Assembly: GCA_964345375.1 (NCBI GenBank)
Contig: CAYFQP010000034.1
Coordinates: 65 to 64,064, forward strand
DNA: 64,000 bases
Direction of reading: 5' to 3'
Source of the DNA: an uncultured Gammaproteobacteria bacterium
GTDB lineage: Bacteria > Patescibacteriota > Microgenomatia > CAYFQP01
Part shown: one piece after another, positions 7,687-47,779 of the stretch
How positions within the stretch are numbered: position 1 is the first letter of the stretch
Layout: each line of letters opens with the position of its first letter
The notes under the pieces: model-generated
Databases searched by the model: none
What the model was told of the DNA's origin: nothing
What the model saw: the letters and a program-made list of their open reading frames with translations, nothing else
Program-made: the position numbers and the translations under genes

Positions 7687-7721
7687 ATCATAGACTTCTC
7701 AAATCTTAAAAGCTTTTTCAT

Positions 7722-23291: not shown

Positions 23292-23294
23292 TTC

Positions 23295-24048: not shown

Positions 24049-24077
24049 TTGACAAATCATTTCCTTTGGAGTAAACT
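24049..24077 (+). promoter_or_regulatory. sigma70-like promoter (TTGACA - 17 nt - TAAACT) for the recombinase gene
   Basis: Consensus -35, 17-nt spacer and a 4/6 -10, eight nt before the ATG at 24085; overlaps the repeated motif TGTCGCACAA. Confidence 0.4.
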
Positions 24078-24084
24078 TTGATTA

Positions 24085-31809: not shown

Positions 31810-31847
31810 ATTGACATTCTACCAGAAGGTTTGTAAGATGAAAAGTA

Positions 31848-33611
31848 ATGGCTGCCCAGACTGCCCAGGCTACTCAAGTTACCCAGGCTGGTAACACTCC
31901 GGCTAAAAACCTGGCTGATATCCTTGTTAAACAAGGAGCTCTTAAGGCTGATCAGGCCGAAAAAGTGAAACTTGAGAATATTAATACTGGTAAGCCGGTT
32001 GAGGAAATTGTTGCTAAGGATAAACTTGTTTCTGAAGAGGCTTTAATTAAGGCCAAGGCTGAATTCTACAACGTTTCTTTTGTTAACTTAATGGAAACCC
32101 CCTCTTCTCCCGAAGCCTTGGCTTTGATCCCAAAATCAGTGGCTGAGGCGAATAATCTCATTCCCTTTGCTCTTGATAAGAAAAAGAATGAACTTTCGGT
32201 TGCCCTGGTTAATCCTCTTGATTTGGAAATCATTGAGTTTATTGAAAAGAAATCCGGGGCCAAAATCAAACCCTTCATGGCTTCTCCCAGTCAGATTAAG
32301 GCGGCCATTGCCGAGCGCTACGGAGTTGGTTTAACGACCGAGGTGACAGCGGCCTTAAAAGAAGCGGTTCCCGAAGTGACGCCAACGAAGACGGTGGATA
32401 TCAAAAAATTGGGTGAGGTTATTCGGGAGGCACCAATTGCCAAGATTGTTTCTACTTTGCTTGAGTTTGCCATGCGGAGTCGAGCTTCGGATATTCACAT
32501 CGAGCCAGAAGAGGGTAAAACCCGAGTCAGGTATCGGATTGATGGCATTATGCACGAGAAATTAATTCTGCCTAAAACAGTCCACGAAGCCCTTGTTTCT
32601 CGGATTAAGATTCTTTCAGGAATGAAGATTGATGAAAAACGGTTACCTCAAGACGGCCGTTTTAATTTCCGGGCTGATGGTGATGAGGTCGATTTGCGGG
32701 TCTCTTGTTTGCCAACGGTTCATGGCGAGAAAATGGTCATGAGGCTCTTGAAAAAAACCGGTGGTGTGCCTGATTTGCCTGAGCTAGGTTTAAGAGGTCG
32801 GGCCTTAAAGCAGGTTGAAGAAGCGATTACCAAACCAGTAGGTATTATCCTTGTTTGTGGACCAACTGGTTCTGGAAAAACAACGACTCTTTATTCAATC
32901 ATTCAGCGAATTAATTCTACCCGAGTCAACATTATCACTCTTGAGGATCCAGTCGAATATCAAATTGCTGGCGTTAATCAGGTTCAGGTTAATCCCAAAG
33001 CCGGTTTGACTTTTGCTTCTGGTCTGCGGTCTTTTGTTCGTCAAGATCCAGACATTATTCTTGTGGGTGAAATTCGGGATAAAGAAACAACCGAACTGGC
33101 AATTCAGGCCTCTCTGACTGGCCATTTAGTTTTCTCGACTCTTCACACTAATTCAGCGGCTGGCGCTCTTCCCCGTTTACTAGATTTAGGAGCTGAACCC
33201 TTCTTATTAGCTTCCTCAGCCTCAGCCATTCTTGGTCAGCGAGTTTGTCGCCGGGTTTGCCCTTATTGTCGCCAAGAATTCGAGCCTTCAGAACAGCTAG
33301 TGGCTGATATCAAGAAGGTTTTAGGCCAGTTATTTGATGAAAAAAAATATGGTCCAGGTTTTAAAATGGTCAAAGGTAAAGGCTGTCAGGAGTGTAATAG
33401 CTCTGGTTATCTAGGTCGGGTGGGAATTTTTGAAGTCCTACCAGTAACCGAAAAAATCGGCCGTTTGATTTTAGAAAGTACCCCCGCTAGCAAAGTCGAA
33501 CAGCAAGCGGTTGAAGAAGGAATGGTTACGATGAAACAGGATGGATATTTGAAATCTTTGGAGGGAATTACTACTATAGAAGAAGTCCTTCGGGTTGCCG
33601 AAGTAAGTTAA
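31848..33611 (+). CDS. pilB: type IV pilus assembly / T2SS ATPase PilB/GspE
   Basis: N-terminal GSPII_E_N domain, Walker A VCGPTGSGKTTTLY, Asp/His boxes, tetracysteine CPYC...CQECNSSGY. Confidence 0.9.
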   Translation: MAAQTAQATQVTQAGNTPAKNLADILVKQGALKADQAEKVKLENINTGKPVEEIVAKDKLVSEEALIKAKAEFYNVSFVNLMETPSSPEALALIPKSVAEANNLIPFALDKKKNELSVALVNPLDLEIIEFIEKKSGAKIKPFMASPSQIKAAIAERYGVGLTTEVTAALKEAVPEVTPTKTVDIKKLGEVIREAPIAKIVSTLLEFAMRSRASDIHIEPEEGKTRVRYRIDGIMHEKLILPKTVHEALVSRIKILSGMKIDEKRLPQDGRFNFRADGDEVDLRVSCLPTVHGEKMVMRLLKKTGGVPDLPELGLRGRALKQVEEAITKPVGIILVCGPTGSGKTTTLYSIIQRINSTRVNIITLEDPVEYQIAGVNQVQVNPKAGLTFASGLRSFVRQDPDIILVGEIRDKETTELAIQASLTGHLVFSTLHTNSAAGALPRLLDLGAEPFLLASSASAILGQRVCRRVCPYCRQEFEPSEQLVADIKKVLGQLFDEKKYGPGFKMVKGKGCQECNSSGYLGRVGIFEVLPVTEKIGRLILESTPASKVEQQAVEEGMVTMKQDGYLKSLEGITTIEEVLRVAEVS

Positions 33612-33617
33612 AAACAA

Positions 33618-34676
33618 ATGGAAATTAGAGAATTACTGAAAATTACTTTAGACCGCAACGCCTCTGACCTCCACCTCTTGGTGGGCATTCCTCCGGCCCT
33701 GAGAATTGATGGAGTTTTGACTTTATTAACTGATTATCCTGCCCTGAATCAAAATATGATTCAGGAATTGGTTAATTCTCTTCTCAATCAGGAACAAAAA
33801 GAAATTCTTAATGTTAATCGGGAATTAGATTTCTCTTTTGAATTAGAAGGTCAGGCTCGTTTCCGGGTTAATGCTTACCACCAGAGGGGCACTTTGGCGG
33901 TTGCCCTTCGGTTGATTCCTTTAAAGATAAGGAATATCGAAGAATTAAAATTACCTCAGATCTGCCATCGCTTTGCTGAACTGAAACAAGGCTTTATTCT
34001 CATCACTGGTCCGACTGGGCACGGTAAGTCAACCACCTTGGCGGCCATCTTAAATGAGATTAACACCAAACGAGCTGAGCACATTGTCACGATTGAAGAT
34101 CCGATTGAATTCATTCTTCCTCAAAGCAAGTCAATTGTTTCCCAAAGAGAAATTCATGCTGACACCCATTCTTGGGAAATTTCTCTTCGGTCTTGTTTAC
34201 GAGAAGATCCGAACGTAGTTCTCGTTGGTGAGATGAGGGATTATGAAACCATTGCTGCCGCCTTAACGATTGCTGAAACCGGCCATTTGGTTTTTGCCAC
34301 CCTCCATACCAACTCTGCTGCCCAGACAATTGACCGAATTGTTGATGTTTTTCCTGAACACTCCAAAAGTCAAGTAAGAATGCAGCTCGCTTTTACGATT
34401 GAGGCCGTCTTTTCTCAGCGGTTGATTCCTTGTTTAAAAGGCGGTAGGGTAGTGGCGACCGAGGTAATGGTTGCCACTCCAGCCATTCGGACTTCTGTTC
34501 GAGAGGGCAAGACCCACATGATTGATAACATCATCCAAACTTCAAGAGAATTGAGCATGTGGACGCTAGAGACCGACCTAGCCCGGTTAGTCAAAGAGGG
34601 AGAAGTGAGCTTAGAGACAGCCAAGGCCTATGCTCTTCGCCCAGAAGATCTTATCAGACAGGTTAGGGGCAAGTGA
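33618..34676 (+). CDS. pilT: twitching motility retraction ATPase PilT
   Basis: ITGPTGHGKSTTLAAIL Walker A, IVTIEDPIEF, LVGEMRD, ATLHTNSAAQTIDRI. Confidence 0.9.
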   Translation: MEIRELLKITLDRNASDLHLLVGIPPALRIDGVLTLLTDYPALNQNMIQELVNSLLNQEQKEILNVNRELDFSFELEGQARFRVNAYHQRGTLAVALRLIPLKIRNIEELKLPQICHRFAELKQGFILITGPTGHGKSTTLAAILNEINTKRAEHIVTIEDPIEFILPQSKSIVSQREIHADTHSWEISLRSCLREDPNVVLVGEMRDYETIAAALTIAETGHLVFATLHTNSAAQTIDRIVDVFPEHSKSQVRMQLAFTIEAVFSQRLIPCLKGGRVVATEVMVATPAIRTSVREGKTHMIDNIIQTSRELSMWTLETDLARLVKEGEVSLETAKAYALRPEDLIRQVRGK

Positions 34677-35878
34677 GAAAATTTAACTATAAAGCCAAAG
34701 ATAAACAAGGAAAGACCGTTAAAGGCGTGGTTGAGGCCGCTGGTGAGAAGCAAGCGGCTAAAGTTCTTCGAGATAAAGGTTTGGTTCCAATCTCCTTGAG
34801 TTTTTCTAAGAGAGATATTTTTAAGGTTATCTCTGAACGGTATTTTCAACGAATTGGTTTGGCTGAGCTCGCCACTTTCACCCGTCAGCTTTCAACCATG
34901 GTGACTGCTGGTTTGACCGTGGCTGATGCCCTCCGGATTCTTAAAGAGCAATCTTCACCTAAGTTTGGCCATGTGATTGATGATGTTCTCAGATCAGTTG
35001 AGGGTGGTGCCACCTTGGCTGAGTCATTGGAGAACCACCCTCGAGTTTTTGGTGAAGTCTATATCGCCCTGGTTCGTTCAGGAGAAGCGGCTGGTGTTTT
35101 GGATGAAGTTTTATCAAGATTGGCTGAGAATTTAGAAAAAGAACGAGAATTTCGGAATAAAGTTAAGGGAGCAATGATCTATCCAGTGGTGATTATTGTT
35201 GGGATGGTCGCCGTAGGCGGGATTATGATGGTTTTTGTCATCCCTAAGCTTTTAGGACTCTACCAAGAATTTGAGGCCGAGTTACCCATGGCGACTAAAA
35301 TCCTGATTACCATTTCTAATTTAGCCACTCGTTTCTGGTGGATCACTCTTTTAATTATTGTGGTGGCTGTTTTTTCCTTAAGAAACTTTCAAAAAACACC
35401 AGTCGGCAAGAAAAAGATTGATCGGTTAAAAATTCAGTTACCCGTGGTTGGCGGCTTGATAAAAATGTCCATCATGGCGGAAATGACCAGAACCTTGGGT
35501 CTCTTAGTTGGCACTGGCATCTCGATTATCGACGCCTTAACAATTGTTTCTCGGGCCGTAGGCAACTCGGTTTATGAAGAAGAGCTCCAAGTGGCGGCTG
35601 ACAGAGTTGAAAAAGGTTTGCCTTTAGGTGGAACCTTAGCTGAATACGAGGACTTTCCTCCAGTTGTTCCCCACATGGTTTCAGTGGGCGAAGAAACCGG
35701 CAAGCTAGATGAAGTTCTGACCAAACTCTCTCAATATTTTGAGTCAGAATCAGAGCAGATGGTTAAAGGCTTGACAACCCTCATCGAGCCCCTTATCATG
35801 GTAGTCTTAGGACTAGGAGTTGGTTTTTTGATTATTGCTGTAATTTTACCAATTTATAATTTGACGACATCATTTTAA
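34673..35878 (+). CDS. pilC: type IV pilus / T2SS platform protein PilC/GspF
   Basis: Two GspF repeats with a 3-TM topology; typical length of 401 aa. Confidence 0.85.
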   Translation: MRKFNYKAKDKQGKTVKGVVEAAGEKQAAKVLRDKGLVPISLSFSKRDIFKVISERYFQRIGLAELATFTRQLSTMVTAGLTVADALRILKEQSSPKFGHVIDDVLRSVEGGATLAESLENHPRVFGEVYIALVRSGEAAGVLDEVLSRLAENLEKEREFRNKVKGAMIYPVVIIVGMVAVGGIMMVFVIPKLLGLYQEFEAELPMATKILITISNLATRFWWITLLIIVVAVFSLRNFQKTPVGKKKIDRLKIQLPVVGGLIKMSIMAEMTRTLGLLVGTGISIIDALTIVSRAVGNSVYEEELQVAADRVEKGLPLGGTLAEYEDFPPVVPHMVSVGEETGKLDEVLTKLSQYFESESEQMVKGLTTLIEPLIMVVLGLGVGFLIIAVILPIYNLTTSF

Positions 35879-35901
35879 GAGAAAGGGGGTGAAAAAAAGA
35901 G

Positions 35902-36543
35902 ATGAAGACTGCCCGTTTTTTAATGGCAAAAGGTTTTACCTTGGTTGAGCTTTTGATTGTTATTGCTCTAATTGGGATCTTGGCGGTGGCTATTTTGGCG
36001 GCCATTAACCCCTTAGAGCAGCTTAATCGAGCCCGGGACACAGGGATGGAATCAGACGCCTCTCAGCTTTTGGCAGCGATTGACCGATATTACGCTGCTC
36101 ATGAAGAGTTCCCTTGGACAACAGTCAGTGAGGATGATGCGGTTATGACTGACATCAGTGGAGAGGATACAATTGGATTTATTTCCGCCCAAGATCCTCT
36201 GATCGGAGTTTGTGATACTACTGGATGTGGAGATCAAGGCGTTCTCCTTGTTAACCTTGAGCTAAAATCAGAGTTTTTGAGGAGGAATTTTATTCTTGCT
36301 ACCCAGCCGGTTGACATGCTCTACTTAGGCAAAGATGAAGGCGCTTCTAGCTCGGTTTACGCTTGTTGGGTGCCTCGGTCTTTAGCTAAGAGACAAAGCT
36401 CATCCGTAAGTCTTACAGGCACTGAAGGAACCGAACCTTATGGACTAGACGACAATGTTTGTGATCCCAACGCAACAGGCACTGACTTTACTGATGTTAC
36501 AAAAGCCTGTTTGTATTGTGTTCCTGGTGCTCCAGTTTGGTAA
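35902..36543 (+). CDS. type IV pilin (prepilin with class III signal; candidate major pilin)
   Basis: MKTARFLMAKG|FTLVELLIVIALIGILAVA with Glu+5; located between pilC and pilD; C-terminal Cys pairs. Confidence 0.75.
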   Translation: MKTARFLMAKGFTLVELLIVIALIGILAVAILAAINPLEQLNRARDTGMESDASQLLAAIDRYYAAHEEFPWTTVSEDDAVMTDISGEDTIGFISAQDPLIGVCDTTGCGDQGVLLVNLELKSEFLRRNFILATQPVDMLYLGKDEGASSSVYACWVPRSLAKRQSSSVSLTGTEGTEPYGLDDNVCDPNATGTDFTDVTKACLYCVPGAPVW

Positions 36544-36643
36544 GGCGAGATTTTTTTGATAACAACTAGGCAGTTATCATTTGGGGAGTTGAAGTGTAAA
36601 GATGAGTTAATAGTCGAAAAATTGGTGGGGAAATATTAGTGAA

Positions 36644-37432
36644 GTGGCTTTATTTTTTTTTCTTTTTATTTTCGGCTTGGGTTTGAGCATTGGCTCATTC
36701 TTAAATGTCCTCATTTATCGCCTACCCCGGTCGATTCCATTAACAGGTCGTTCTTTCTGTCCTAGGTGTAAAAAAAAGATTTCTTGGCAAGATAATTTTC
36801 CTTTATTGTCTTTCATCTTTTTAAGAGGAAAGTGTCGTCATTGCCACTCCCCTATTTCCTGGCAATATCCAGTGGTAGAGTTTTTAACCGCCTTTCTTTT
36901 TTTCTTAACTGCTTTCTGGGTCTTTAAGCAAAACCCTGATTTAACCTTGTTAACCCCCCAATATTACTTAATCCTTGGCTACTACCTTTTTCTTTTTTCA
37001 GCCTTAGTGGTAATTTTTTTCACTGATTTATTCCAACAAATTATTCCTGATCAAGTTGTCTATCCGGCAATGGTAATCAGCCTAATAGGTGGCTTTTTCC
37101 TTGATGGAATTCAAAGATATAATCTTCTCTCAGCCCTAGGAGGAGGTCTTTTCTTTCTCTTCCTCCATTTGATTACTAAGAAGAAAGGAATGGGTTCGGG
37201 TGATATAAAATTAGTTGTCTTAATGGGATTGATTCTTGGTTTTCCTAAGATTGTCCTTGCTTCATACTTAGCTTTCTTGACAGGTGCTCTGGTAGGTGTC
37301 ATACTGATTTTAGCAAAAAAAAAGAAGTTTGGGGAGCATATTCCCTTTGGCCCGTTTCTAGCTGGGTCAACGATTATTGCCCTTTTTTGGGGTGAAGAAT
37401 TAATTAAATGGCTGACTGCCCGCTTATTTTAA
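36644..37432 (+). CDS. pilD: prepilin peptidase PilD (A24 family)
   Basis: CPRCKKKI...CRHCHSPI zinc finger, 8 TM, catalytic Asp regions (TDLFQQIIPD; GMGSGDIKL). Confidence 0.85.
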   Translation: MALFFFLFIFGLGLSIGSFLNVLIYRLPRSIPLTGRSFCPRCKKKISWQDNFPLLSFIFLRGKCRHCHSPISWQYPVVEFLTAFLFFLTAFWVFKQNPDLTLLTPQYYLILGYYLFLFSALVVIFFTDLFQQIIPDQVVYPAMVISLIGGFFLDGIQRYNLLSALGGGLFFLFLHLITKKKGMGSGDIKLVVLMGLILGFPKIVLASYLAFLTGALVGVILILAKKKKFGEHIPFGPFLAGSTIIALFWGEELIKWLTARLF

Positions 37433-38046
37433 AAAGGAAAAAACCTCAAGGAATCTCCCTGACTGAATTATTAATCGTTGTCGCCGTTATTGCTGTTCTA
37501 ATCCTGGCTCTGATTGCTGCTTTTAAACCTTGGACCCAGCAAGCTAAAGCCCGCGATGCTCAGCGAAAAGCTGATCTTCAGAAGATTAAGGCTCCCCTTG
37601 AAGATTATTATAATGATAATAATTGCTACCCCTATCCAACTCTTGATGATTTGGTTCCCGATTATATTGGTGAGAAACCAACCGATCCGGAAACAGGCGA
37701 AGATTATATTTATATTCCAGACCCAAATTGCAATTTCTACCAGATTTATACTAGACTAGAATATATCAATGATCCAGAGATTATCGAGGTCGGTTGTGGA
37801 GCTGGTTGCGGGCCAGGAGGAGATGATGGCACTTGTGAATATAATTATGGGATTTCGGGTGGTGGAGAGAGCCTAGAATGTTGCACGGCACCTGAAGACA
37901 TCTGTCCGTTTGGTGGAAGACCCTGGGTGGCCCCGCCTGATTGTGAAAACCCAGGCGACTATTGTGGGAAACCGACCTGTTGTTATCAAAACTGGGTTAT
38001 GGTTTGTGACGGAGAGGAATATTGGTGTTGTCAACCTGAAGAATAA
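37408..38046 (+). CDS. pilin-like protein with Cys-rich C-terminal domain
   Basis: KRKKPQG|ISLTELLIVVAVIAVL prepilin N-terminus; ARDAQRKADLQKIKAPLEDYY GspG-like helix; 14 Cys in the last ~85 aa. Confidence 0.65.
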   Translation: MADCPLILKRKKPQGISLTELLIVVAVIAVLILALIAAFKPWTQQAKARDAQRKADLQKIKAPLEDYYNDNNCYPYPTLDDLVPDYIGEKPTDPETGEDYIYIPDPNCNFYQIYTRLEYINDPEIIEVGCGAGCGPGGDDGTCEYNYGISGGGESLECCTAPEDICPFGGRPWVAPPDCENPGDYCGKPTCCYQNWVMVCDGEEYWCCQPEE

Positions 38047-38048
38047 TA

Positions 38049-38579
38049 ATGAAATTAAAAAAGCTTAAAGTTAAAAACCAAAAACACGGTTTTACTTTAG
38101 TTGAACTGTTGGTAGTGATGGCCATTCTCGCCATTTTGGCGACTGTCACTTTAGCCAATTTCCGAACTTCTCAAATTAAAGCCCGCGATGCCCAGAGAAA
38201 ACATGATTTACGCCAGATTGTTAATGCTTTAGAGGCCTATTTTAGTGATCATAATGGCTATCCAGAGGCCAGTAATGGAAAAATCATGGCTTGTGGTTGT
38301 CAAGATCCAGGACTGGCTTGTGGTTGGGATGATCCTGTTGGTCAACGAGAGTTTTGTGATGGTAATAACACTGTTTACATGGCTAAAGTTCCTGGTGACC
38401 CTCTTTCGGATCCTAATCACTCCTATTGCTATCAATCTGATGGAAATTACTTTAAACTTTATGCTATTCTAGAAAATGAGAAAGACCCAGAAGCAACGAT
38501 TGAGGTCACCTGTGCTGGTAAAGACTATAATTTTGGCCTTGCCAGCCCGAACGTGCCTTTAGTTGAGGAGGAAGAATGA
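38049..38579 (+). CDS. pilin-like protein (GspG/PulG-like pseudopilin)
   Basis: KHG|FTLVELLVVMAILAILA, KARDAQRKHDLRQIVNALEAYFSDHNGYP. Confidence 0.7.
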   Translation: MKLKKLKVKNQKHGFTLVELLVVMAILAILATVTLANFRTSQIKARDAQRKHDLRQIVNALEAYFSDHNGYPEASNGKIMACGCQDPGLACGWDDPVGQREFCDGNNTVYMAKVPGDPLSDPNHSYCYQSDGNYFKLYAILENEKDPEATIEVTCAGKDYNFGLASPNVPLVEEEE

Positions 38580-38668
38580 AAAAACTGATTAATAACTTTG
38601 GTTTTACCCTGATTGAACTCTTGGTCGTCATCTCGATTATTGGCATTTTAGCCACCCTCTTGATTGCT
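38576..38668 (+). repeat. 93-nt segment identical to 39068-39160 (first 31 codons of two adjacent pilin genes)
   Basis: Direct comparison of the sequence: 93/93 identity starting exactly at each ATG, with divergence immediately afterwards. Confidence 0.85.
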
Positions 38669-39064
38669 AATCTTGGTGGGATAAGGGAAAGGGCCCGAGA
38701 TGCTCAGAGAAAGAATGATCTCAATCAGATTCAGAAAGCGTTAGAGATGTATAAAAATAGTCAGGACCCGCCTACTTATCCAGCTGATGGAATTGACAGC
38801 CTAATGGATACCTTAAAAGCTAAAAACTTTGTCCAAGATGAATTGCATGACCCAAAATGTACTTATAATTCTGATGACGATCTTTGGGAATGTACTGGCG
38901 ATTGGCCTGATTATAGTTATGATTTAGATCCAGAAGACATGGGTGATGATTTGACTTACGAACTAGTTGTTTGCCTAGAGAATCCCTCTGACCCCCAGGC
39001 AGATAGCAGTCTCCATTCTGATTGTTCTGGAGCAGGAGGTAGTATTTCCAGGAGGGAACCCTAA
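38576..39064 (+). CDS. pilin-like protein (paralog A)
   Basis: MKKLINNFG|FTLIELLVVISIIGILATLLIA; ERARDAQRKNDLNQIQKALEMY. Confidence 0.7.
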   Translation: MKKLINNFGFTLIELLVVISIIGILATLLIANLGGIRERARDAQRKNDLNQIQKALEMYKNSQDPPTYPADGIDSLMDTLKAKNFVQDELHDPKCTYNSDDDLWECTGDWPDYSYDLDPEDMGDDLTYELVVCLENPSDPQADSSLHSDCSGAGGSISRREP

Positions 39065-39067
39065 AAG

Positions 39068-39160
39068 ATGAAAAAACTGATTAATAACTTTGGTTTTACC
39101 CTGATTGAACTCTTGGTCGTCATCTCGATTATTGGCATTTTAGCCACCCTCTTGATTGCT
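39068..39160 (+). repeat. second copy of the 93-nt pilin N-terminal repeat
   Basis: Identical to 38576-38668. Confidence 0.85.
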
Positions 39161-39565
39161 CGTTATGGGATGGCTGAAAAAAGTGCTCGAGACACAGAGA
39201 GAAAATCTGATTTGAATCAATACCGGATTGGCCTTGAGAATTTTGCTTCTCAGACAGGTGGTCTTTACCCTGCCCGGCCTTCTCGGGGTGATGCTTCAGA
39301 CGGAGAGCCTTGCGATGCACTTACCAGTGATGATTATCTTTCTCAGTGTCCTCAAGATCCCCGCCAGGAAGAGGATGAAACGACTTACCTTTACCTTTAT
39401 CATTCAAATGGGACTGCAGGTGAAAGTGACGCCACTAATTATATTCTCTGGGCGAGATTAGAAACAGGGACTCAACCTCATCATCATTGGTATGTTTGTG
39501 CTGATGGCCGGGCTGGTGAGAAACAGGGGCCGGCACCAAGTTTAGCCGATGATTGCGGTGGCTAA
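39068..39565 (+). CDS. pilin-like protein (paralog B)
   Basis: Identical N-terminal 31 aa to the preceding gene, then a divergent C-terminus (SARDTERKSDLNQYRIGLENF...). Confidence 0.7.
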   Translation: MKKLINNFGFTLIELLVVISIIGILATLLIARYGMAEKSARDTERKSDLNQYRIGLENFASQTGGLYPARPSRGDASDGEPCDALTSDDYLSQCPQDPRQEEDETTYLYLYHSNGTAGESDATNYILWARLETGTQPHHHWYVCADGRAGEKQGPAPSLADDCGG

Positions 39566-40004
39566 AATGAGGAAAAAGATTGCTGGTTTTACTTTAATTG
39601 AGTTATTGGTAGTAATTACTATCATTGGTATCCTAATGGGTATTCTCTTAGTCGCCTATCAAGGCACAAGGGTGACAGCTCGAGACGGCAAAAGAAAAGC
39701 GGATTTAGAACAAATCCGAGCCGCTCTTCAACTCTATCATGCTGATTGTGGTGTCTATCCAAGTTCTCCCAATTTTGGTGGTAGTTTAACCTCCACAAAG
39801 CCTCCTTGTCCCGATTCTTCAACTAAATATATGAGTAAAGTTCCCCAGGATCCCCTCTACCCTACTTATGAATACAGTTATGTTCCAGGAGCAACTGGTC
39901 ATACCTATACTCTTTGTGCCTATCTTGAGAAAGGCTCTGGCAGTGTTTCTGGTTGTGGCAGCTGTGGTGATTCATCTTGTAATTATCAAACAACCCAACC
40001 CTAG
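39549..40004 (+). CDS. pilin-like protein
   Basis: KIAG|FTLIELLVVITIIGILMGILL; ARDGKRKADLEQIRAALQLY. Confidence 0.7.
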   Translation: MIAVAKMRKKIAGFTLIELLVVITIIGILMGILLVAYQGTRVTARDGKRKADLEQIRAALQLYHADCGVYPSSPNFGGSLTSTKPPCPDSSTKYMSKVPQDPLYPTYEYSYVPGATGHTYTLCAYLEKGSGSVSGCGSCGDSSCNYQTTQP

Positions 40005-40013
40005 AATTAAATA

Positions 40014-41063
40014 ATGATCAATGAGAAGGATCTTCAAAAGAAAAAAGGCTTTACCCTGATTGAGCTTCTGGTTGCCCTCTCCATTATTGGGATGATCTTT
40101 ACTTTTGGTTTTGCTTATTATCAGGATTTTAATCGTCGCCAAGTAGTTAATCAAGCAGCCAAAGAATTAAAAAATAATCTTCGTCTTGCCCAGAGCAAGG
40201 CTTTAGCCGGCGAAAAACCAGAAGGCTGTCAAGGCCAGTTGGAGGGTTATCTAGTCGAATTTGGTTTAAATGAATACATAATTTCAGCCAAATGTAGTCT
40301 CAGTGGAAAGGTTGATTCTAGTTCGATTGTCTATCCCCTAGTCTCTGGAGTTCAGATTGTTAACTCTCCTGGAACAATTGTTTTTAATGTTTTAAGTCTA
40401 GGAGTTAGCGAGCCTGGGGTGATTACTCTCAGTGGAACGAATTACTCGAACGAGGTTGAAGTTAAAGAAGGCGGCGAAATTTCTATTGATGACAGTGTTC
40501 CCTATACGTCTATGCCAACGCCTACTCCTTCACCTTCACCTGCTCCGACACCCACTTGTGTTGAAGAGGGTGATGTTAAGATAGTCTATCCAGGAATGCC
40601 GGACTGTTGCCCAGGGCTCAACCCAATCGGTAATTACACCATAAATAAGGCCGGTCAATGTCAACCCCTTTTGGGAGGAGAAGTCTGTGCTTATTGCCCC
40701 AATGGAGTTTGTGGTCTAGGAGAAGATTATTGTAATTGCCCTGAAGATTGTGGTACCTTGCCAACACCCACTCCATCGTGTGTACCTGAGGGAGGGACTA
40801 AATTAACCTCTCCAGGGGCGCCAGATTGTTGTCCCGGCCTGGCTCTTTTGGTTAATTATACCATTGATGAGGAAGGGGTTTGTCACCCTCTTTATGGCGG
40901 TGGAGTTTGTGCTTATTGCCCTGATGATCAATGCGGTCTAGGAGAAGATTATTGTAATTGCCCTGAAGATTGTTGTGCCGACCGATTTGAGAGTTGTGAT
41001 GTTAAACCCTGCTGTAGTCCCTTTACTTGTCAACAGTTTTTGTTTACTGAGAGATGTTTCTAG
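40014..41063 (+). CDS. minor pilin-like protein with two tandem ~74-aa Cys-rich repeats and PT linkers
   Basis: KKKG|FTLIELLVALSIIGMIF; PTPTPSPSPAPTPT linker; repeats with 10 Cys each (CCPGL...NYTI...C.PL.GG.VCAYCP..CGLGEDYCNCPEDC). Confidence 0.7.
   Translation: MINEKDLQKKKGFTLIELLVALSIIGMIFTFGFAYYQDFNRRQVVNQAAKELKNNLRLAQSKALAGEKPEGCQGQLEGYLVEFGLNEYIISAKCSLSGKVDSSSIVYPLVSGVQIVNSPGTIVFNVLSLGVSEPGVITLSGTNYSNEVEVKEGGEISIDDSVPYTSMPTPTPSPSPAPTPTCVEEGDVKIVYPGMPDCCPGLNPIGNYTINKAGQCQPLLGGEVCAYCPNGVCGLGEDYCNCPEDCGTLPTPTPSCVPEGGTKLTSPGAPDCCPGLALLVNYTIDEEGVCHPLYGGGVCAYCPDDQCGLGEDYCNCPEDCCADRFESCDVKPCCSPFTCQQFLFTERCF
40545..40980 (+). repeat. tandem coding repeat (~222 nt x2) encoding the Cys-rich module; includes a 39-nt identical core at 40713-40751 and 40935-40973
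   Basis: GGTCTAGGAGAAGATTATTGTAATTGCCCTGAAGATTGT occurs twice; the flanking TGTGCTTATTGCCC also occurs twice. Confidence 0.75.
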
Positions 41064-41095
41064 GGAAAGAGAGCCAACCAGCTTTTTTGATTATC

Positions 41096-41593
41096 ATGGA
41101 TGAGAGGAGACGAGGAAAAATAAAAAGACTGACTGGCTTCACCCTCATCGAGCTTTTAATCGTGATTTCGATTATGGGACTGTTTTTGACAGCAGGTTTG
41201 GTTTACTACCAAGACTTTAATCGCCGTCAGATTCTTGGCCAGGCAACTAAGGAATTAGAAAATAATCTTCGTCTTGCCCAGAGTAAGGCTTTAGCCGGCG
41301 AAAAACCAGAAGGTTGGTGTAAGGGTGAAAATGACTCGCTGGTTGGTTGTTCCCTGGAGTTTACTTCAGCTAATAATTATCAAGTTAAAGCAATTTGTTC
41401 TAATCCGGGAGTTGAGCCATTTGAGTTCACCTCAATCGATTTACCCGAGCAATTATCAGGATCAAGTGGTCAAAAAGCTTTGTTTAAGGTTCTTGGCCAA
41501 GGAGTAGCAGAAAAGACGACTTTTAATCTCTCAGGCTATGGAATGGAGAAAGAGGTTATTGTTGAAGAAGCAGGCAATATTTATATAAAATAA
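41096..41593 (+). CDS. pilin-like protein (N-terminal paralog of the 40014 gene)
   Basis: MDERRRGKIKRLTG|FTLIELLIVISIMGLF; shares YYQDFNRRQ...ELxNNLRLAQSKALAGEKPEG with the preceding gene. Confidence 0.65.
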   Translation: MDERRRGKIKRLTGFTLIELLIVISIMGLFLTAGLVYYQDFNRRQILGQATKELENNLRLAQSKALAGEKPEGWCKGENDSLVGCSLEFTSANNYQVKAICSNPGVEPFEFTSIDLPEQLSGSSGQKALFKVLGQGVAEKTTFNLSGYGMEKEVIVEEAGNIYIK

Positions 41594-41633
41594 TCTTTAG
41601 AGGAAATATTTTTATTCAAAGATATTCAAAAAA

Positions 41634-42086
41634 ATGATTAATTTAAGAAAAGAAAAAGGTCAAACCCTTCTTGAAGTTTTGGTTGCCTTAGCCGTGGTTG
41701 TTCTGGTGATTGTGGCTCTGATTAAAGCAACAACCTATTCCCTTAAAGGGAGCGACTTCTCTAAGACTCAGGCCTTAGCCACCAGATATGCTCAGGAAGC
41801 AATTGAGTGGACCAGGGCGGAAAGAGACAAGAGTTGGGATAATCTGGCTGATAGGTCGAGTGCAGATGGCAGCACTTATTGTTTGACCTCTCTCAGTTGG
41901 CCTGGAGCTGGTGGTTGTAGCGAGTCAGGTTTTTTAGAGGCTGACAATCGGTTTAAAAGAGAGGTCGTTCTTAAGAATGTTGGTGGCGAAGGAAATAGAA
42001 TCGAGGTTAGGGTTGAGGTTAGTTGGCAGGACGCTAGTGGCGAGCATCACTCTCGTTTAGAAACTTATTTATCAAATTGGCGATGA
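41634..42086 (+). CDS. pilin-like protein (GspI/PilV-like)
   Basis: KG|QTLLEVLVALAVVVLVIVALI prepilin-type N-terminus. Confidence 0.55.
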   Translation: MINLRKEKGQTLLEVLVALAVVVLVIVALIKATTYSLKGSDFSKTQALATRYAQEAIEWTRAERDKSWDNLADRSSADGSTYCLTSLSWPGAGGCSESGFLEADNRFKREVVLKNVGGEGNRIEVRVEVSWQDASGEHHSRLETYLSNWR

Positions 42087-42604
42087 AGAAAAAGAGTTTG
42101 GGATTCACCTTAATCGAAACCTTAGTAGTCATTTTCCTGATTGGGATTGTTTTAGTGGCTGGGGGGAATATCTTTTTTGGCATCATGAAGGGAGCCAGCA
42201 AGGCAGAAGTAGAAAGAGAAGTTAAACAGAACGGAGACTACGCTTTGGCAATTATGGAGAGAATGATTAGAAATTCGAGAGGAGTAGTTGTCTGTGATGA
42301 AGACCAAGATGAGTTGACGATTACCAACTTAGATTTTTACCAGACCACTTTTGAGCGAGTCCCGGACTCTGACCTAGGCATCAACCGGGTCGCTTCCTCG
42401 GGTGCCTATTTAACTGGTGAGAATGTTGACGTTCTTTCTTTAAACTTCGATTGTATTTATGAACCAGAAACAAGCTCGGATGAAAAAGACATCAGGCGAG
42501 TGGAGATTAACTTCTCTTTAATTCCCAGAGGAGGAGAAAAGGAAGTACCAGAGACCTACACGATCATTGACTTCAAGACGAGTATTAGTCTGAGGAATTT
42601 TTAG
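42077..42604 (+). CDS. pilin-like protein (GspJ/PilW-like)
   Basis: KSLG|FTLIETLVVIFLIGIVLVAGG. Confidence 0.6.
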   Translation: MAMKKKSLGFTLIETLVVIFLIGIVLVAGGNIFFGIMKGASKAEVEREVKQNGDYALAIMERMIRNSRGVVVCDEDQDELTITNLDFYQTTFERVPDSDLGINRVASSGAYLTGENVDVLSLNFDCIYEPETSSDEKDIRRVEINFSLIPRGGEKEVPETYTIIDFKTSISLRNF

Positions 42605-42642
42605 ATTTGACAATCAATTCTTGAATAGGTAAACTGAAATCA

Positions 42643-43530
42643 ATGATAAAACTGCCTCTTCGTCGTTTTTCTCCTCAGTTAAAGAAAGCAAGGGATTTAC
42701 CCCAAGGACAGGCTCTCCTGGTGATTCTTCTGGTTATGGCGGTTGGTTTGACCATTGGTTTAGCCGTGACCTCAAGGACAGTGACCGACATTGAGATTTC
42801 CGAGAAAACTGAAGAGGCCGCCCGAGCCTTCTCAGCGGCCGAGGCTGGCGTGGAAGAGGCTTTGGTCACAGCCGGGTTTGGAGAACTTCCTTCTGGTGAA
42901 TTTGAAGGAGGCGTCAGTTATACGACCAGGAAGGACCCCCTTGGAGAAGAAAAGACTTATCTTTTTCCTTCAGTGGAAAATAATGAAACAAAAACTCTTT
43001 GGCTAGCTGAATATCCAGATACAGAAAGTTATGCTGAAGACAGTTTAATTTTGTATTGGGGAGATTTTGATTCTTCTGAAAATCCTAGTTTAGAAGTTAT
43101 TGTTTATTATCTAGATGGAGGTAATTATAAAACTTGGCGTTATGCTCTCAACCCGATTGATAGAGGTGATGGTTTTTGTCAACCAGATCTAGCGGGAGAT
43201 ACCTGCGATAAAGTTCTCGATTTTGACCAGTTTGGCCCTCATTCAATTGGCAGCCAAGAAGCAAGTTATAAAGCAACCATTGAGTTGCCAGGAGGGCCTA
43301 ATGTTGTTCTCCTTTTTGCCAGATTGAGACTTTTGTATTCAGACGAATCCCAAGTTCTAGGTGCTGAAGCTGTTGGCGATAGCATTATCCTCCCCTCTCA
43401 AGGAGTCAAAATCACTTCAACAGGCACAGCCGGAGCTTCAACCAGAAAAGTCGAAGTAATTCGAGAGCACCCTGCTCCTTCAGAAATTTTTGACTTTTTG
43501 CTTTACTCAGGAACCGATTTAGAGAAATGA
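42643..43530 (+). CDS. GspK/PilX-like minor pseudopilin (large, no Glu+5)
   Basis: LPQGQALLVILLVMAVGLTIGLAV hydrophobic N-terminus resembling GspK; 295 aa. Confidence 0.45.
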   Translation: MIKLPLRRFSPQLKKARDLPQGQALLVILLVMAVGLTIGLAVTSRTVTDIEISEKTEEAARAFSAAEAGVEEALVTAGFGELPSGEFEGGVSYTTRKDPLGEEKTYLFPSVENNETKTLWLAEYPDTESYAEDSLILYWGDFDSSENPSLEVIVYYLDGGNYKTWRYALNPIDRGDGFCQPDLAGDTCDKVLDFDQFGPHSIGSQEASYKATIELPGGPNVVLLFARLRLLYSDESQVLGAEAVGDSIILPSQGVKITSTGTAGASTRKVEVIREHPAPSEIFDFLLYSGTDLEK

Positions 43531-44546
43531 ACGTCTTTGGCTTAGACATTGGCTCGACCTCTATTAAGATTGCCCAGGCTCAGAAAGAGGGTAACAAATT
43601 TCGTCTTTATTCGGCTGGCTTGGTCCAATCGCCTTCACCTGGGATTAACTCTGAAGCGAAAAAGGATTTGGTTGCCTTAGCGACGGCGATTAAAAAACTT
43701 CATCAAGACACAAAGATTAATAACCGGAGCGCGGTTGTCTCTTTGCCTGAAAGCAAAATTTTCTCTCGGGTGATTAGCTTGCCAGTTATGAGCGAGGATG
43801 AACTTTCTCAATCTCTTCAATGGGAGGCAGAACAATTTGTTCCTATGCCAATTGAAGACATTAGTCTCGACAGTGTTATTATCAGTCGGGGTCAACCAGG
43901 AAAAGTTGAGCAGAAGATGGAAGTTTTTGTTGTCGCTGCTCCCAATAATTTGATTAAGAAGTACCAGCAGGTGATTGAAATGGCTGGTTTTAAAATGGTG
44001 GCGATTGAAACCGAGCTTATTGCCGCTGCTCGAGCCTTAGTGGCTCCTGATTCGCCTCCTGTTTTAATCATTGATTTTGGCGCCGAGACAACAGACATTG
44101 CCATTGCTAAACAAGGCCGGGTGGTTTTCACTCGCTCAATTCCCGCTGCTGGCCAGGCTTTTACCCGGGCGATTTCTTCAGGTCTTTCAATCGACATTTC
44201 TCAAGCAGAAAAATACAAAACTGCTTATGGGTTAGAGGAAAAAAAGCTCGAAGGAAAAGTTAAAGAGGCCATTGCTCCAGTAGTAAATCAGGTTGTCAAT
44301 GAAGTCCGGAAAGCAATCCAATTCTGGCGAGAAAAAGAGAAAGAAGAGGTCAAATCACTTATTCTCACTGGCGGCTCGGCTAACCTTCCTAATCTGACTG
44401 CCTTTTTAACTCAATCATTAGGGATAGAGGTCCAAGTAGCTAACCCGTTTGCCCACTTAGTGGCTAACGAAAAACAGATTGCTCGTTTAAGTCAGAACAC
44501 TCCCCTCTTCGCTGTTGCCGTTGGTTTAGCCATGAAGGAGGTATAA
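43527..44546 (+). CDS. pilM: type IV pilus assembly protein PilM (actin-like ATPase fold)
   Basis: MNVFGLDIGSTSIKIAQ N-terminus, typical PilM length and motifs. Confidence 0.85.
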   Translation: MNVFGLDIGSTSIKIAQAQKEGNKFRLYSAGLVQSPSPGINSEAKKDLVALATAIKKLHQDTKINNRSAVVSLPESKIFSRVISLPVMSEDELSQSLQWEAEQFVPMPIEDISLDSVIISRGQPGKVEQKMEVFVVAAPNNLIKKYQQVIEMAGFKMVAIETELIAAARALVAPDSPPVLIIDFGAETTDIAIAKQGRVVFTRSIPAAGQAFTRAISSGLSIDISQAEKYKTAYGLEEKKLEGKVKEAIAPVVNQVVNEVRKAIQFWREKEKEEVKSLILTGGSANLPNLTAFLTQSLGIEVQVANPFAHLVANEKQIARLSQNTPLFAVAVGLAMKEV

Positions 44547-45083
44547 ATGCAATTTGGAATTAATCTTCTAGCCAGAGAAAAACCACCAACAGTTGTTGAA
44601 AAGCAAATAATCGGCAGACTAAAAAAAATTTCTCTTTTAGTCCTAGTGGTCTATGCTCTGGTAACTGGGATTCTTCTTGGCGGTGGTTATTATTTTTCTC
44701 TAGAAAGTAGAAATCTCTCTCGCCAGGCCAGTCAACTAGAAACGAGAATTAAATCTTTTCAAAAAGTGGAAACTTTAGAAGTCCTGATTAAAGACAGAAT
44801 TGTTAATAGTCAAAAAATCCTTGGCGCCCGGTCTCATCCTGAAGAGACTTTGACCAAAATCATTAATATAGTCGAGGAAGGAGTGAATATCTCAGAAATT
44901 GATTTTGGGGTCAAGGATAGACTAACTTTTAGCGTTGACACCCGTGACGTAACGAGCATGGAAATTTTTCTAGAAAAAATCAAAAAGGTTTTAGCCGAGT
45001 TAGGCTACCAAACTGTTAGGCTTGAGATGATTAGCCGTAATAAAAATGGCGGTTATTATTTTCAATTAATCGCTGAGAAGTAA
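44547..45083 (+). CDS. pilN: PilN-like bitopic membrane protein
   Basis: Short cytoplasmic N-terminus (binds PilM), single TM, coiled coil; immediately downstream of pilM. Confidence 0.6.
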   Translation: MQFGINLLAREKPPTVVEKQIIGRLKKISLLVLVVYALVTGILLGGGYYFSLESRNLSRQASQLETRIKSFQKVETLEVLIKDRIVNSQKILGARSHPEETLTKIINIVEEGVNISEIDFGVKDRLTFSVDTRDVTSMEIFLEKIKKVLAELGYQTVRLEMISRNKNGGYYFQLIAEK

Positions 45084-45084
45084 A

Positions 45085-45792
45085 ATGGCTGATTTAAAAA
45101 AAATCTTGTTTAAATATCATCAACTCTTTCTTCCTTTTATCTTTATCATCTCTTTGTTAATTTTTTGGTTTTTCCTGATGCCCAGGTTTAACCAGATAAA
45201 GAAAGTTTATTATTCAAATCAAAAAGAAAGAGAAAGGATTAGGAGCCTCCAAGTAAAAATCAGTGATTTAGAAACCCTTAATGAATACGAACTAACGGAA
45301 AAATCAGAGATTCTTCTTCTGGCTCTGCCCTCAGAGAAAAATGGGGTGGCGATGATGGGAGCGGTGAGCAATTTAGTTGAGGAGAATGGATTGGTAATCG
45401 AGTCAATTAGTGTTTCTCCTGGTGAGATAGCCACTGGCTCGGCTGAAGAATCGGCTGAAGAATCGGCCATGGATTTTTTACCTTTTAGATTAACGATTAC
45501 TGGTGAGATTACCCAATTTTTGAATTTTTTGGAAGCTGCTAGCCAGACTCTTCCGTTAATGGATGTAGAAATGAGGAATTTTGACATCACTGGTGAGCAG
45601 TCAACCTCTGATTGTTTAATTAAGTTTTATTATACTGGTTTACCGACAACGCTTGGAAAAATTGAGACGCCTGTGCCTAAACTATCTAGCCAAGAGGAAT
45701 TATTTCTTGATGAGCTCCAAAAGTTTAATGCCTATCAATTAGAACCGTTTGAGCCCAGTGTCGGCGGTCGAGCTAACCCCTTTACTTTTTAG
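45085..45792 (+). CDS. pilO: PilO-like bitopic membrane protein
   Basis: N-terminal TM plus coiled coil, then a periplasmic-type domain; position after pilN. Confidence 0.5.
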   Translation: MADLKKILFKYHQLFLPFIFIISLLIFWFFLMPRFNQIKKVYYSNQKERERIRSLQVKISDLETLNEYELTEKSEILLLALPSEKNGVAMMGAVSNLVEENGLVIESISVSPGEIATGSAEESAEESAMDFLPFRLTITGEITQFLNFLEAASQTLPLMDVEMRNFDITGEQSTSDCLIKFYYTGLPTTLGKIETPVPKLSSQEELFLDELQKFNAYQLEPFEPSVGGRANPFTF

Positions 45793-46036
45793 ATTCTTTG
45801 CTTTCAGATTCTTCGAGGATTAATTGGACTTTTTTCTTTTCGGTCAGTCCCCGAGCTTTGAGAAGGGTTCTGATTGCCTTAATTACTTTTCCTTGTCGAC
45901 CAATAACCATGCCCATGTCTTCTTTGGCCACTTTCAGGTTGAGGTTAATTACCCCATTTTTTTCTTCTCCTTCAATCTCAACTGCTTGGGGTTGAGAAAC
46001 AAGAGACTTAATAATGAATTCAAGAAGCTCTTTCAT
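45782..46036 (-). CDS. KH-domain RNA-binding protein (YlqC/UPF0109 family)
   Basis: VIGRQGKVIKAIRTLL KH GxxG motif; adjacent to rpsP as in many bacteria. Confidence 0.75.
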   Translation of the reverse strand: MKELLEFIIKSLVSQPQAVEIEGEEKNGVINLNLKVAKEDMGMVIGRQGKVIKAIRTLLKARGLTEKKKVQLILEESESKESKK

Positions 46037-46049
46037 TCCTTTTCTAATT

Positions 46050-46280
46050 CTATTTTTTTTCTAAAAGCTTAAGAACAGATTTGGTTGGTTGGGCCCCTTT
46101 TTTTCTCCAAGCCTGATACTCGTCCATCTTGATTTTGAGAGTCGGTGGTTTAGTCCTTGGATTATAGGAGCCAAGAATGGCCACATTCTTACTGTCTCTT
46201 TTTGTCTTTGCTTCAGAGACAACAATTCGGTAAGAGACGTCTCCTTTTCTACCAACTTTAGCTAATCTTATCTTAAGCAT
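46050..46280 (-). CDS. rpsP: 30S ribosomal protein S16
   Basis: MLKIRLAKVGRKGDVSYRIVV typical S16 N-terminus. Confidence 0.9.
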   Translation of the reverse strand: MLKIRLAKVGRKGDVSYRIVVSEAKTKRDSKNVAILGSYNPRTKPPTLKIKMDEYQAWRKKGAQPTKSVLKLLEKK

Positions 46281-46959
46281 AAATTTTTAGACCCTTTTTA
46301 GCGGCCTGTTGTTCTGCTTCTTGCTTTGATTTGCCTTTTCCCTGGGTAATTTTCTTTTTTCCCAGGAAAACACCGACGATGAATATTTTATCATGGTCTG
46401 GCCCAAAACCTCTAATCAATCGATAAACTGGGGTTAGTTTTTCTTTTTCTTGAGCTTTTTCTTGGAAAAGACTCTTATAATCTTTAAGGCTCTTTTGGTG
46501 ACTAATCTTAGTTATCCTTTTTCCTAGAAAAGAATCAATAAACTTTTTTGTTTTTTCTAGGCCCTGGTCAAGATAAATGGCGCCGATTAGAGCCTCAAAG
46601 GCATTGGCGAGGAGGCTTTTGTTTTTCCTTCCTCCGCCCTCTTCTTCACCCTTGCTTAAAAGAAGATATTCACCAAGCTGAAATTGATTGGCTGCTTGAG
46701 CCAGAGAGTCAGTTTTAACGATTTGAGAACGAAAAGTGGTTAAAATGCCCTCGTTTAATTCTGGGAAGAGAGTGTATATTTTTTCGGAAATAATAAATTC
46801 TAAGATAGCGTCGCCGAGAAATTCTAGTCTTTCGTTTGAGGGAAGCTTTTCTTTGGGGTGTTCATTGAGATAGGAACGGTGAATGAGAGCCTTTTTAAGG
46901 AGGTTTTTATCCTTAAAATCAATCTCGATCTTTTTTTCTAGGGATTGGGTTTTAATCAT
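46273..46959 (-). CDS. rnc: ribonuclease III
   Basis: ERLEFLGDAIL signature, C-terminal dsRBD. Confidence 0.9.
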   Translation of the reverse strand: MIKTQSLEKKIEIDFKDKNLLKKALIHRSYLNEHPKEKLPSNERLEFLGDAILEFIISEKIYTLFPELNEGILTTFRSQIVKTDSLAQAANQFQLGEYLLLSKGEEEGGGRKNKSLLANAFEALIGAIYLDQGLEKTKKFIDSFLGKRITKISHQKSLKDYKSLFQEKAQEKEKLTPVYRLIRGFGPDHDKIFIVGVFLGKKKITQGKGKSKQEAEQQAAKKGLKIYA

Positions 46960-47189
46960 TCTGCTTCGGAAACAAGGTTAATAATGTCATTAACTGTTTT
47001 AATCTTTTTAATTTCTTCATCAGAAATCTCGATTGAAAATTCTTGATTGATTTCCATAATAATGTCCGCGATTTCTAAGAATTCAGCATTAAAATCTTCA
47101 ACCAGGTCTGAGTCTGGCTCAATTTTTTCCAGAGGCGTGCCTAATTTATTGGCAATAATTTCTTTAATCTTTTGAATTTTTCCTTCCAT
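46956..47189 (-). CDS. acyl carrier protein homolog lacking the phosphopantetheine-attachment Ser (Phe at the DSL position)
   Basis: Aligns ungapped with E. coli AcpP: DLVEDFNAEFLEIADIIMEINQEF against [20 protein letters not shown]. Start set at MEGKIQKIKEI; the ORF-track N-terminal extension overlaps nusB. Confidence 0.6.
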   Translation of the reverse strand: MEGKIQKIKEIIANKLGTPLEKIEPDSDLVEDFNAEFLEIADIIMEINQEFSIEISDEEIKKIKTVNDIINLVSEAE

Positions 47190-47734: not shown

Positions 47735-47779
47735 ACAGCTTATATTTTAGCTTCTTTGGAAGGCTAAAGCAAGAAGAGA

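Follow-up and report, generated by a model that had tools for sequence, protein, structure and literature searches.

A probable secretin-less type IVa pilus locus in a Microgenomates-class genome of the Candidate Phyla Radiation

Type IV pili (T4P) belong to the small set of surface machines that are conserved throughout the Candidate Phyla Radiation (CPR)/Patescibacteria. In Saccharibacteria they drive twitching motility and host binding (PMC11623550) and are essential (PMC11665869), and in the complete Microgenomates genome Ch65 the T4P is encoded at a single locus without pilQ, from which a monoderm-type envelope was deduced (PMC7143001). The type IVa pili (T4aP) of monoderm bacteria are characterized by PilM, PilN and PilO together with PilT, and by the absence of PilP and PilQ (PMC6916266), while modular pilins are described as adhesins that carry a functional module grafted on so as to be displayed at the tip (PMC8179133). 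Here we analyze a stretch of 64,000 nucleotides (the 64-kb window) from contig CAYFQP010000034.1 of assembly GCA_964345375.1, in which a cluster of pil genes occupies positions 31848–45792. This cluster is very probably a chromosomal, vertically inherited T4aP locus of a Microgenomates-class member of the CPR/Patescibacteria, of the secretin-less form that single-membrane bacteria typically have, and it is a correctly annotated further example of an architecture already published for Microgenomates.

Composition and conservation of the pil cluster

Eighteen intact, co-directional open reading frames (ORFs) fill the roughly 14 kb of the cluster, separated by gaps of at most 101 nt or overlapping by a few bases, in the order pilB, pilT, pilC, pil1, pilD, nine more prepilin genes, a gene for a large pilin-like protein (X295), pilM, pilN and pilO (Table 1). 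Such a cluster is far beyond chance. A sequence-only reading of the window had proposed a contiguous pil locus, and its bounds are exact, with the ATG of pilB at 31848 and the stop of pilO at 45792; its count of one pilin before pilD and nine after is likewise correct, and the machinery it named is supported by Pfam hidden Markov models (HMMs). Matches were judged against Pfam gathering scores and NCBIfam curated cut-offs. The parts that mark a T4aP are all present, namely a PilB-type ATPase, PilT, a PilC with two T2SSF domains, PilD, PilM-PilN-PilO and class III pilins.

PilT is placed by a curated model (Table 1). In the PDB, PilB is matched best by Thermus PilF and the PilB proteins of Geobacter and Myxococcus (439–455 bits over the full length), with GspE matching at a lower 367 bits and in the C-terminal part only. 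Since PilB falls under the NCBIfam equivalog cut-offs of both the PilB and the GspE models, its subtype is assigned from context. PilC behaves similarly, with E-values of 1e-108 to 1e-102 on the GspF and PilC models and scores under the cut-off of both, and the translation of pilD displays CxxC...CxxC and GSGD motifs. Binding of cyclic di-GMP by the PilB N-terminus was considered and is unsupported, the corresponding NCBIfam motif scoring 15.8 bits against a cut-off of 38.

The assignment of PilN draws on its orthologues. As a single sequence it gives no match to any Pfam or NCBIfam HMM, whereas a profile of 17 positional orthologues has PilN of Myxococcus xanthus (3jc8, E=5.1e-5) as its sole significant PDB match, and six of the 17 match the Pfam PilN family (best E 8.9e-10). 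Judged by these profiles, the ORF is PilN. Its N-terminus, MQFGINLL (44547–44580), aligns with MMIRINLLP of the Myxococcus (diderm) protein, and all 17 positional orthologues start with the same INLL motif (for example MSDINLLPQD and MKISINLLPPE); the C-terminus reads ...ISRNKNGGYYFQLIAEK. The INLLP motif is familiar from PilM:PilN structures of Thermus and Pseudomonas. A literature search on "INLLP" returned nothing. Where related loci extend far enough, most have a pilO homologue after pilN.

The surroundings of the cluster speak to its history. Its upstream neighbors on the - strand are gyrA, ppa, gyrB and holB, and downstream follow a KH-domain gene, rpsP, rnc, an acyl-carrier-like gene, nusB, rpmF, recG, tyrS, a class A penicillin-binding protein gene and pheT; every other ORF of at least 110 aa in the window is either a housekeeping gene or without a match. 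We took as relatives the best 80 PilC relatives among GTDB species genomes. All 80 are metagenome-assembled genomes (MAGs) of Patescibacteria/Microgenomates (Beckwith-, Woese-, Shapiro-, Davies-, Curtiss- and Pacebacteria), with a top identity of 70%, so that a CPR origin of the window is supported by these PilC comparisons. The order gyrA-ppa-gyrB-holB, pilB-T-C-pil1-pilD-pilins-X295-pilM-N-O, rnc-nusB-recG is conserved in loci with enough sequence, with the full order and both flanks found in loci L001, L004, L016 and L021 (the last coming from the complete genome CP011210); L037 (complete genome CP055308) has gyrB-holB and the pil cluster through pilO, its sequence ending before the downstream flank. 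These two complete relatives measure 0.80 and 1.05 Mb, and at the level of the lineage the gene order recurs in at least 20 MAG loci. The same order with the same flanks in relatives argues for a conserved, vertically inherited chromosomal locus and not an island. By identity to L001 (Table 1), the last minor pilins appear to be the fastest-evolving.

Several of the PilC relatives (L001, L003, L004 and others) are third-party-annotation MAGs titled "uncultured Gammaproteobacteria" or "Pseudomonadales" that carry the CPR-type locus and flanks; these titles look like mislabels.

With regard to expression, a promoter-like TTGACA-17-TAAGAT occupies 31811–31839, its end lying 8 nt ahead of the pilB ATG. 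As pilB has no Shine-Dalgarno sequence, its mRNA may lack a leader. Another strong promoter-like site, TTGACA-17-TATCAT, stands at 35771–35799, some 100 nt upstream of pil1. In the promoter and terminator scan, site counts were no higher than in shuffled sequence.

Elsewhere in the window, about 1.2 kb (22887–24084) contain no ORF of at least 70 aa, have a G+C content of 0.33 and lie directly upstream of a XerC/D-type integrase gene (24085–25023); an Rfam search of this non-coding stretch (22.9–24.1 kb) gave nothing credible. A 221-aa ORF at 17095–17760, which overlaps a 152-aa ORF at 16766–17224, has weak Hint/intein-splicing matches (E ~4e-6, below gathering scores), and the ORFs at 22119–22886 and 60782–61402 match DUF5656 and DUF5660.

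Table 1. Genes of the pil cluster, with positions in the window, family evidence and protein identity to the related locus L001 (ranges and shared values as given for the genes in brackets).
Gene	Product	Position	Strand	Evidence	Identity to L001
pilB	extension ATPase, 587 aa	31848..33611	+	Pfam T2SSE 5.7e-130, MshEN 1.3e-17	72%
pilT	retraction ATPase, 352 aa	33618..34676	+	TIGR01420 PilT/PilU 444 bits (cut-off 319.1); Pfam T2SSE 4e-43	76%
pilC	platform protein, 401 aa	34673..35878	+	two Pfam T2SSF domains, 8.9e-65	70%
pil1	prepilin, candidate major pilin, 213 aa	35902..36543	+	N_methyl 26.9 bits	57%
pilD	prepilin peptidase/N-methyltransferase, 262 aa	36644..37432	+	A24_N_bact 7.4e-32, Peptidase_A24 2.5e-15	62%
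pil2	GspG-like prepilin	37408..38046	+	N_methyl; Cys-rich C-terminal extension, 16 Cys	45%
pil3	GspG-like prepilin	38049..38579	+	N_methyl	54-63% (pil3-pil6)
pil4	GspG-like prepilin	38576..39064	+	N_methyl	54-63% (pil3-pil6)
pil5	GspG-like prepilin	39068..39565	+	N_methyl	54-63% (pil3-pil6)
pil6	GspG-like prepilin	39549..40004 (likely start 39567)	+	N_methyl; Pfam T2SSG 35.5 bits (cut-off 21)	54-63% (pil3-pil6)
pil7	modular minor pilin, 349 aa	40014..41063	+	N_methyl 32.1 bits	45% (pil7/8)
pil8	paralogue of pil7 pilin module, 179 aa	41054..41593 (likely start 41096)	+	N_methyl 25.9 bits; GspH 4.9e-9, sub-threshold	45% (pil7/8)
pil9	minor pilin, 150 aa, G↓QTLLEVL	41634..42086	+	N_methyl 26.4 bits; ComGE/GspI/PilV E ~1e-7, sub-threshold	38%
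pil10	minor pilin, 175 aa	42077..42604 (likely start 42083)	+	N_methyl 29.2 bits; no specific minor-pilin model	33%
X295	large pilin-like protein, 295 aa, G↓QALLVILL, candidate tip subunit	42643..43530	+	no Pfam/NCBIfam match	48%
pilM	actin-like assembly protein, 339 aa	43527..44546	+	PilM_2 3.1e-54; TIGR01175 220 bits (cut-off 133)	59%
pilN	PilN (by orthologue profile), 178 aa	44547..45083	+	orthologue profile; one predicted transmembrane helix (read from sequence)	35%
pilO	PilO, 235 aa	45085..45792	+	Pfam PilO 3.8e-4, 21.0 bits (cut-off 22); NCBIfam GspM 1.6e-4	38%

Prepilins, the modular pilin and X295

HMM searches of the pilin-like ORFs, the check proposed together with the sequence-only reading, put all ten prepilins above the N_methyl gathering score (23.5–39.1 bits vs. 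21.2). That reading had ascribed to the nine further prepilin-like genes a uniform class III signal, G↓FTL(I/V)ELL with Glu+5 (the arrow follows Gly-1). Gly-1 and Glu+5 are indeed found in 10 of 10, but the motif is not uniform: eight of the ten carry G↓FTL(I/V)E(L/T)L, while the ORF at 37408 has G↓ISLTELL and that at 41634 has G↓QTLLEVL. A six-frame scan of the 64 kb for the prepilin motif gave ten matches, all within 35.9–42.1 kb, and none in the other 57 kb. The probable true starts of pil6, pil8 and pil10 lie inside the longest ORF (Table 1). The number of minor pilins had also been called high for such a small genome; the count of ten does stand at the upper end, but it is unexceptional among 22 related loci, in which strict prepilin motifs between pilC and pilM number 7.5 in the median with a range of 2–11. 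In nearly all pilins of the locus the cysteines are even in number, in keeping with extracellular pilin domains held by disulfide bonds.

The pil1 product, with the leader MKTARFLMAKG↓FTLVELL and a strong Shine-Dalgarno sequence (AAAGGGGGTGA) upstream of its gene, makes a reasonable major-pilin candidate. Its homologue directly follows pilC in most related loci (41–57% identity in L001–L003), and its similarity to PDB entries does not go beyond the type IV pilin N-terminal helix. By composition pil6 is an equally possible candidate; the Gly/Ala/Ser/Thr content is alike in pil1, pil5, pil6 and pil9, so this composition was discarded as a criterion for the major pilin because it does not discriminate.

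The genes pil2 to pil6 are five tandem paralogues, each with GspG as its best NCBIfam model at sub-threshold scores (E 4e-6 to 4e-18), and pil6 aligns with solved GspG globular domains in the PDB. Within this array the first 31 codons of pil4 and pil5 are identical over all 93 nt (38576–38668 and 39068–39160), while identity falls to 34% across the next 300 nt. No such identical 5' pair is present in the 80 related loci, and the tract suggests recent gene conversion or, less likely, an effect of assembly.

For pil7 to pil10, the NCBIfam minor-pilin matches are sub-threshold and confined to the first ~60–85 residues. Profiles of the orthologues of pil7/8, pil9 and pil10 match only the alpha1N segment of assorted pilins in the PDB, and when Pfam was applied to 57 orthologues, GspH was matched by 2/57 and ComGE by 1/57, the matches being otherwise to N_methyl. 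The arrangement of the minor-pilin genes resembles the common H-I-J-K core order, and among the related loci compared, L001, L002, L004, L016 and L021 have a pil10 homologue between the homologues of pil9 and X295.

The product of pil7 has the build of a modular type IV pilin, in that a pilin module (residues 15–160) is followed by a Pro/Thr linker and by non-pilin sequence, namely two tandem Cys-rich modules of ~70 aa and a Cys-rich tail. The pilin module is 49% identical to pil8 and shows weak GspH/PpdA/ComGD similarity across the N-terminal ~65 residues. A single pil7/8-type gene is present in each of the two closest relatives (L001 and L002), the window thus having an extra second copy. 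In an AlphaFold2 (AF2) model the predicted local distance difference test score (pLDDT) is 85–98 for the pilin module and ~86–91 for the first Cys module; a fold search with the multi-domain model was uninformative. The tandem modules are 83% identical over 93 nt of DNA and share the motif C..EG..CCxGL..CAxCxxGxCGxGExxCNCPxDC, or in a more specific form C..EG..CCPGL..CAYCPxGxCGLGEDYCNCPEDC. No Pfam family matches the module at E<=0.01, and 13 relatives of it were found among 5.8 billion proteins. Four of these 13 are pilins of the same type with one copy, and the others include non-pilin secreted proteins, one of them annotated "archaeon"; a search with full-length pil7 also returns an Aenigmarchaeota protein. 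Related CPR pilin modules bear other C-terminal modules, such as Laminin_G_3. A second, independent assembly of the organism, from Logan, is identical at 7715 of 7716 positions over 40944–48659 and begins inside a 30-nt perfect repeat of pil7, from which it follows that the repeat is real enough to break assemblies.

X295, which among the pilin-like proteins of the locus is exceeded in size by pil7 only, has Val at position +5 and hence no Glu5. Among its 440 homologues a few carry PF14341 PilX_N, and conservation is at least 90% at both Gly22 and Gln23, as fits a site for the prepilin peptidase. The AF2 model (61-sequence alignment, pLDDT 89.6) consists of a 55-residue helix at 21–75 and then an all-beta domain of ~200 residues. 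Foldseek found nothing in the PDB at E<1e-3, and a sequence profile found nothing there either; the weak fold neighbours are jelly-roll/beta-sandwich proteins (capsid P-domains, TNF, concanavalin A, a carbohydrate-binding module), among them lectins and glycosidases. X295 had been labeled GspK-like. Its position, size and missing Glu5 agree with that label, but neither T2SSK nor PilX_N is matched and the fold is all-beta; a GspK identity was rejected, as no GspK is among the fold matches listed and the globular part is all-beta.

Envelope, function and alternative readings

The absence of PilQ and PilP, noted in the sequence-only reading, is borne out by the HMMs: zero Secretin or PilP matches occur among the ORFs of at least 110 aa in the window, and all 18 ORFs of the pil locus are accounted for, none of them a secretin, PilP or pilotin. 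Directly after pilO stands the convergent block of the KH-protein gene, rpsP and rnc, which leaves no room for pilP-pilQ in their usual position, and rnc lies just downstream of pilO in all ten related loci extending past it. The proposed fit to a monoderm-type envelope likewise agrees with the published description of monoderm T4aP (PMC6916266), and the same argument has been made for Ch65 (PMC7143001).

It could still be asked whether the organism is diderm and encodes secretin, PilP and pilotin elsewhere, the cluster then belonging to a conventional Gram-negative T4aP whose pilQ is dispersed. The window covers only 64 kb of the genome, PilN has the INLL motif of the Myxococcus protein, and PilB is nearest to diderm PilB/PilF structures; however, this last argument is weak because the PDB holds few monoderm PilB structures. 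Given that the complete Ch65 genome lacks pilQ (PMC7143001), that pilO is followed by the convergent KH-protein/rpsP/rnc block here and by rnc in the ten related loci that extend past it, and that the window shows no gene for outer-membrane biogenesis, we consider a diderm organism very unlikely. An assignment of the cluster to a type II secretion system (T2SS)-like pseudopilus for protein secretion, with the GspG-like and H/I/J/K-like subunits as a piston, seems extremely unlikely. It would account for GspG being the best model of pil2 to pil6, for the alignment of pil6 to the GspG globular domain, and for PilB and PilC scoring about equally on the GspE/GspF and PilB/PilC models, but GspD, GspC and GspL are missing, as are the Secretin, T2SSC and T2SSL families, the sole related matches being a faint T2SSL inside PilM and a weak GspM on PilO. 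PilT above its curated cut-off together with PilM/N/O is specific to T4aP (PMC6916266), the T2SS is a diderm system, and pili have been seen on cultivated CPR cells (PMC11623550).

The question of function brings in a third possibility, that the cluster is chiefly a DNA-uptake (competence) pilus that feeds ComEA/ComEC and serves nucleotide scavenging over motility or adhesion. CPR bacteria lack nucleotide biosynthesis and show an enrichment in competence genes (PMC11665869), CPR T4P have been proposed to take up DNA (PMC7143001), and several of the pilins have weak ComGC/GD/GE matches. On the other hand, the window contains no ComEA, ComEC or DprA (for ComEC and ComEA, no match among the ORFs of at least 110 aa), and the models of a ComG-type system are not reached, ComGA scoring 257 against a cut-off of 300 and ComGB 148 against 240, whereas PilT and PilM are clear and PilN and PilO, if less firm, join them in defining a T4aP. 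In TM7x, deletions of non-essential T4P-2 genes left wild-type transformability (PMC11623550), and S. epibionticum can grow without its competence genes, whereas its T4P are essential (PMC11665869). A primarily competence-related role thus appears unlikely, with DNA uptake by this pilus being possible, though not supported by the window. By analogy with cultivated Saccharibacteria, our best guess is that twitching motility and host-cell attachment would be its likely roles.

Several points count against the T4aP interpretation or soften its details. The pilus of the source organism is known here from its genes, and the envelope type is deduced from gene absence in 64 kb and from published relatives. 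The GspH/I/J-type labels of pil7 to pil10 come from sub-threshold matches of the N-terminal helix. PilO lies just under the Pfam threshold and PilN is recognized through a profile only, while the copy number of the pil7 Cys module is that of one assembly.

If the steps known from characterized homologues carry over to this T4aP, PilD would cleave the ten prepilins after Gly-1 in the membrane and methylate the new N-terminus, X295 probably being processed as well. PilB, acting via PilC and held by PilM-PilN-PilO, would polymerize the pilins into a filament, with PilM expected to bind PilN by its INLL motif at the N-terminus, and PilT would retract the filament. The filament would most likely consist mainly of pil1 or of one of the five GspG-like paralogues, and pil7/pil8, pil9, pil10 and X295 would most likely form the priming/tip complex, where the beta domain of X295 and the Cys modules of pil7 would be exposed as the best adhesin candidates. 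Without PilP and PilQ the fibre would exit directly through the wall.

A broader proposition has two separate parts: that the CPR machine may be a diderm-type T4aP minus PilP/PilQ and would then be a trace of outer-membrane loss in the CPR ancestor, and that the pil7 Cys module, also present in DPANN secreted proteins, may be a host-surface binder shared by unrelated ultrasmall episymbionts. We regard this as rather doubtful.

Comparison with known systems

Since the secretin-less architecture and its implication for the envelope are already published, current understanding is unchanged by this locus. What it adds is one more Microgenomates case, well resolved and complete in its parts, and it shows that cluster and chromosomal position alike are conserved throughout the class; modest leads come from the Cys-rich modular pilin, the gene-conversion tract and the PilN motif of diderm type. 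By its published description Ch65 likewise has one locus with major and minor pilins, PilD, PilB, PilT, PilC and PilM and no pilQ (PMC7143001). Relative to Ch65 and other CPR T4P, the locus in the window has an extra modular pilin of the pil7/8 type.

With the monoderm T4aP of Firmicutes (Streptococcus sanguinis, Clostridia; PMC6916266) the locus has in common PilB, PilT, PilC, PilD, PilM/N/O and clustered pilins, along with the lack of PilP, PilQ and pilotin. The two differ in their pilins, which number 10–11 here and five in the Firmicutes systems (PMC6916266), and in the assembly proteins. Firmicutes PilN bears a C-terminal RD(MILF)N(FYW)FS motif (PMC6916266), which was not seen on reading the present PilN and its 17 aligned orthologues, whereas PilN here has the N-terminal INLL of the diderm type. 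In addition, S. sanguinis PilO has a mass of 56.6 kDa (PMC6916266), while PilO here, at 235 aa, is modestly larger than the 178-aa PilN. Judging by this motif and the size of PilO, the machine resembles a diderm T4aP minus PilP/PilQ more closely than the Firmicutes version.

The T4P-1 and T4P-2 of the saccharibacterium TM7x (PMC11623550) have in common with the present locus a CPR T4aP of conserved machinery and fast-evolving pilins. TM7x possesses four T4P loci against one in the window, and functions have been demonstrated in TM7x only (PMC11623550). Its large pilins PilX1 and PilX2 have no predicted PilD signal peptide and contain beta-jelly-roll-like and beta-propeller domains, respectively (PMC11623550); by description X295 is like them in combining a non-canonical signal with an extra beta-rich domain. 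X295 is also like the Glu5-less minor pilins of the GspK/PilX type in standing last in the minor-pilin block with a conserved Gly-1. GspK itself, however, has a pilin fold with an inserted alpha-domain (PMC8179133), in contrast to the predicted all-beta domain of X295.

The variable subunits X295 and pil7 are most likely those that decide what the cell binds, and for pil7 the nearest described counterparts are the modular pilins PilB and PilC of S. sanguinis (PMC8179133), which likewise join a pilin module to a grafted module through a short linker. What distinguishes pil7 from them is the nature of the graft, a rare Cys-rich unit of ~70 aa that is present twice in tandem.

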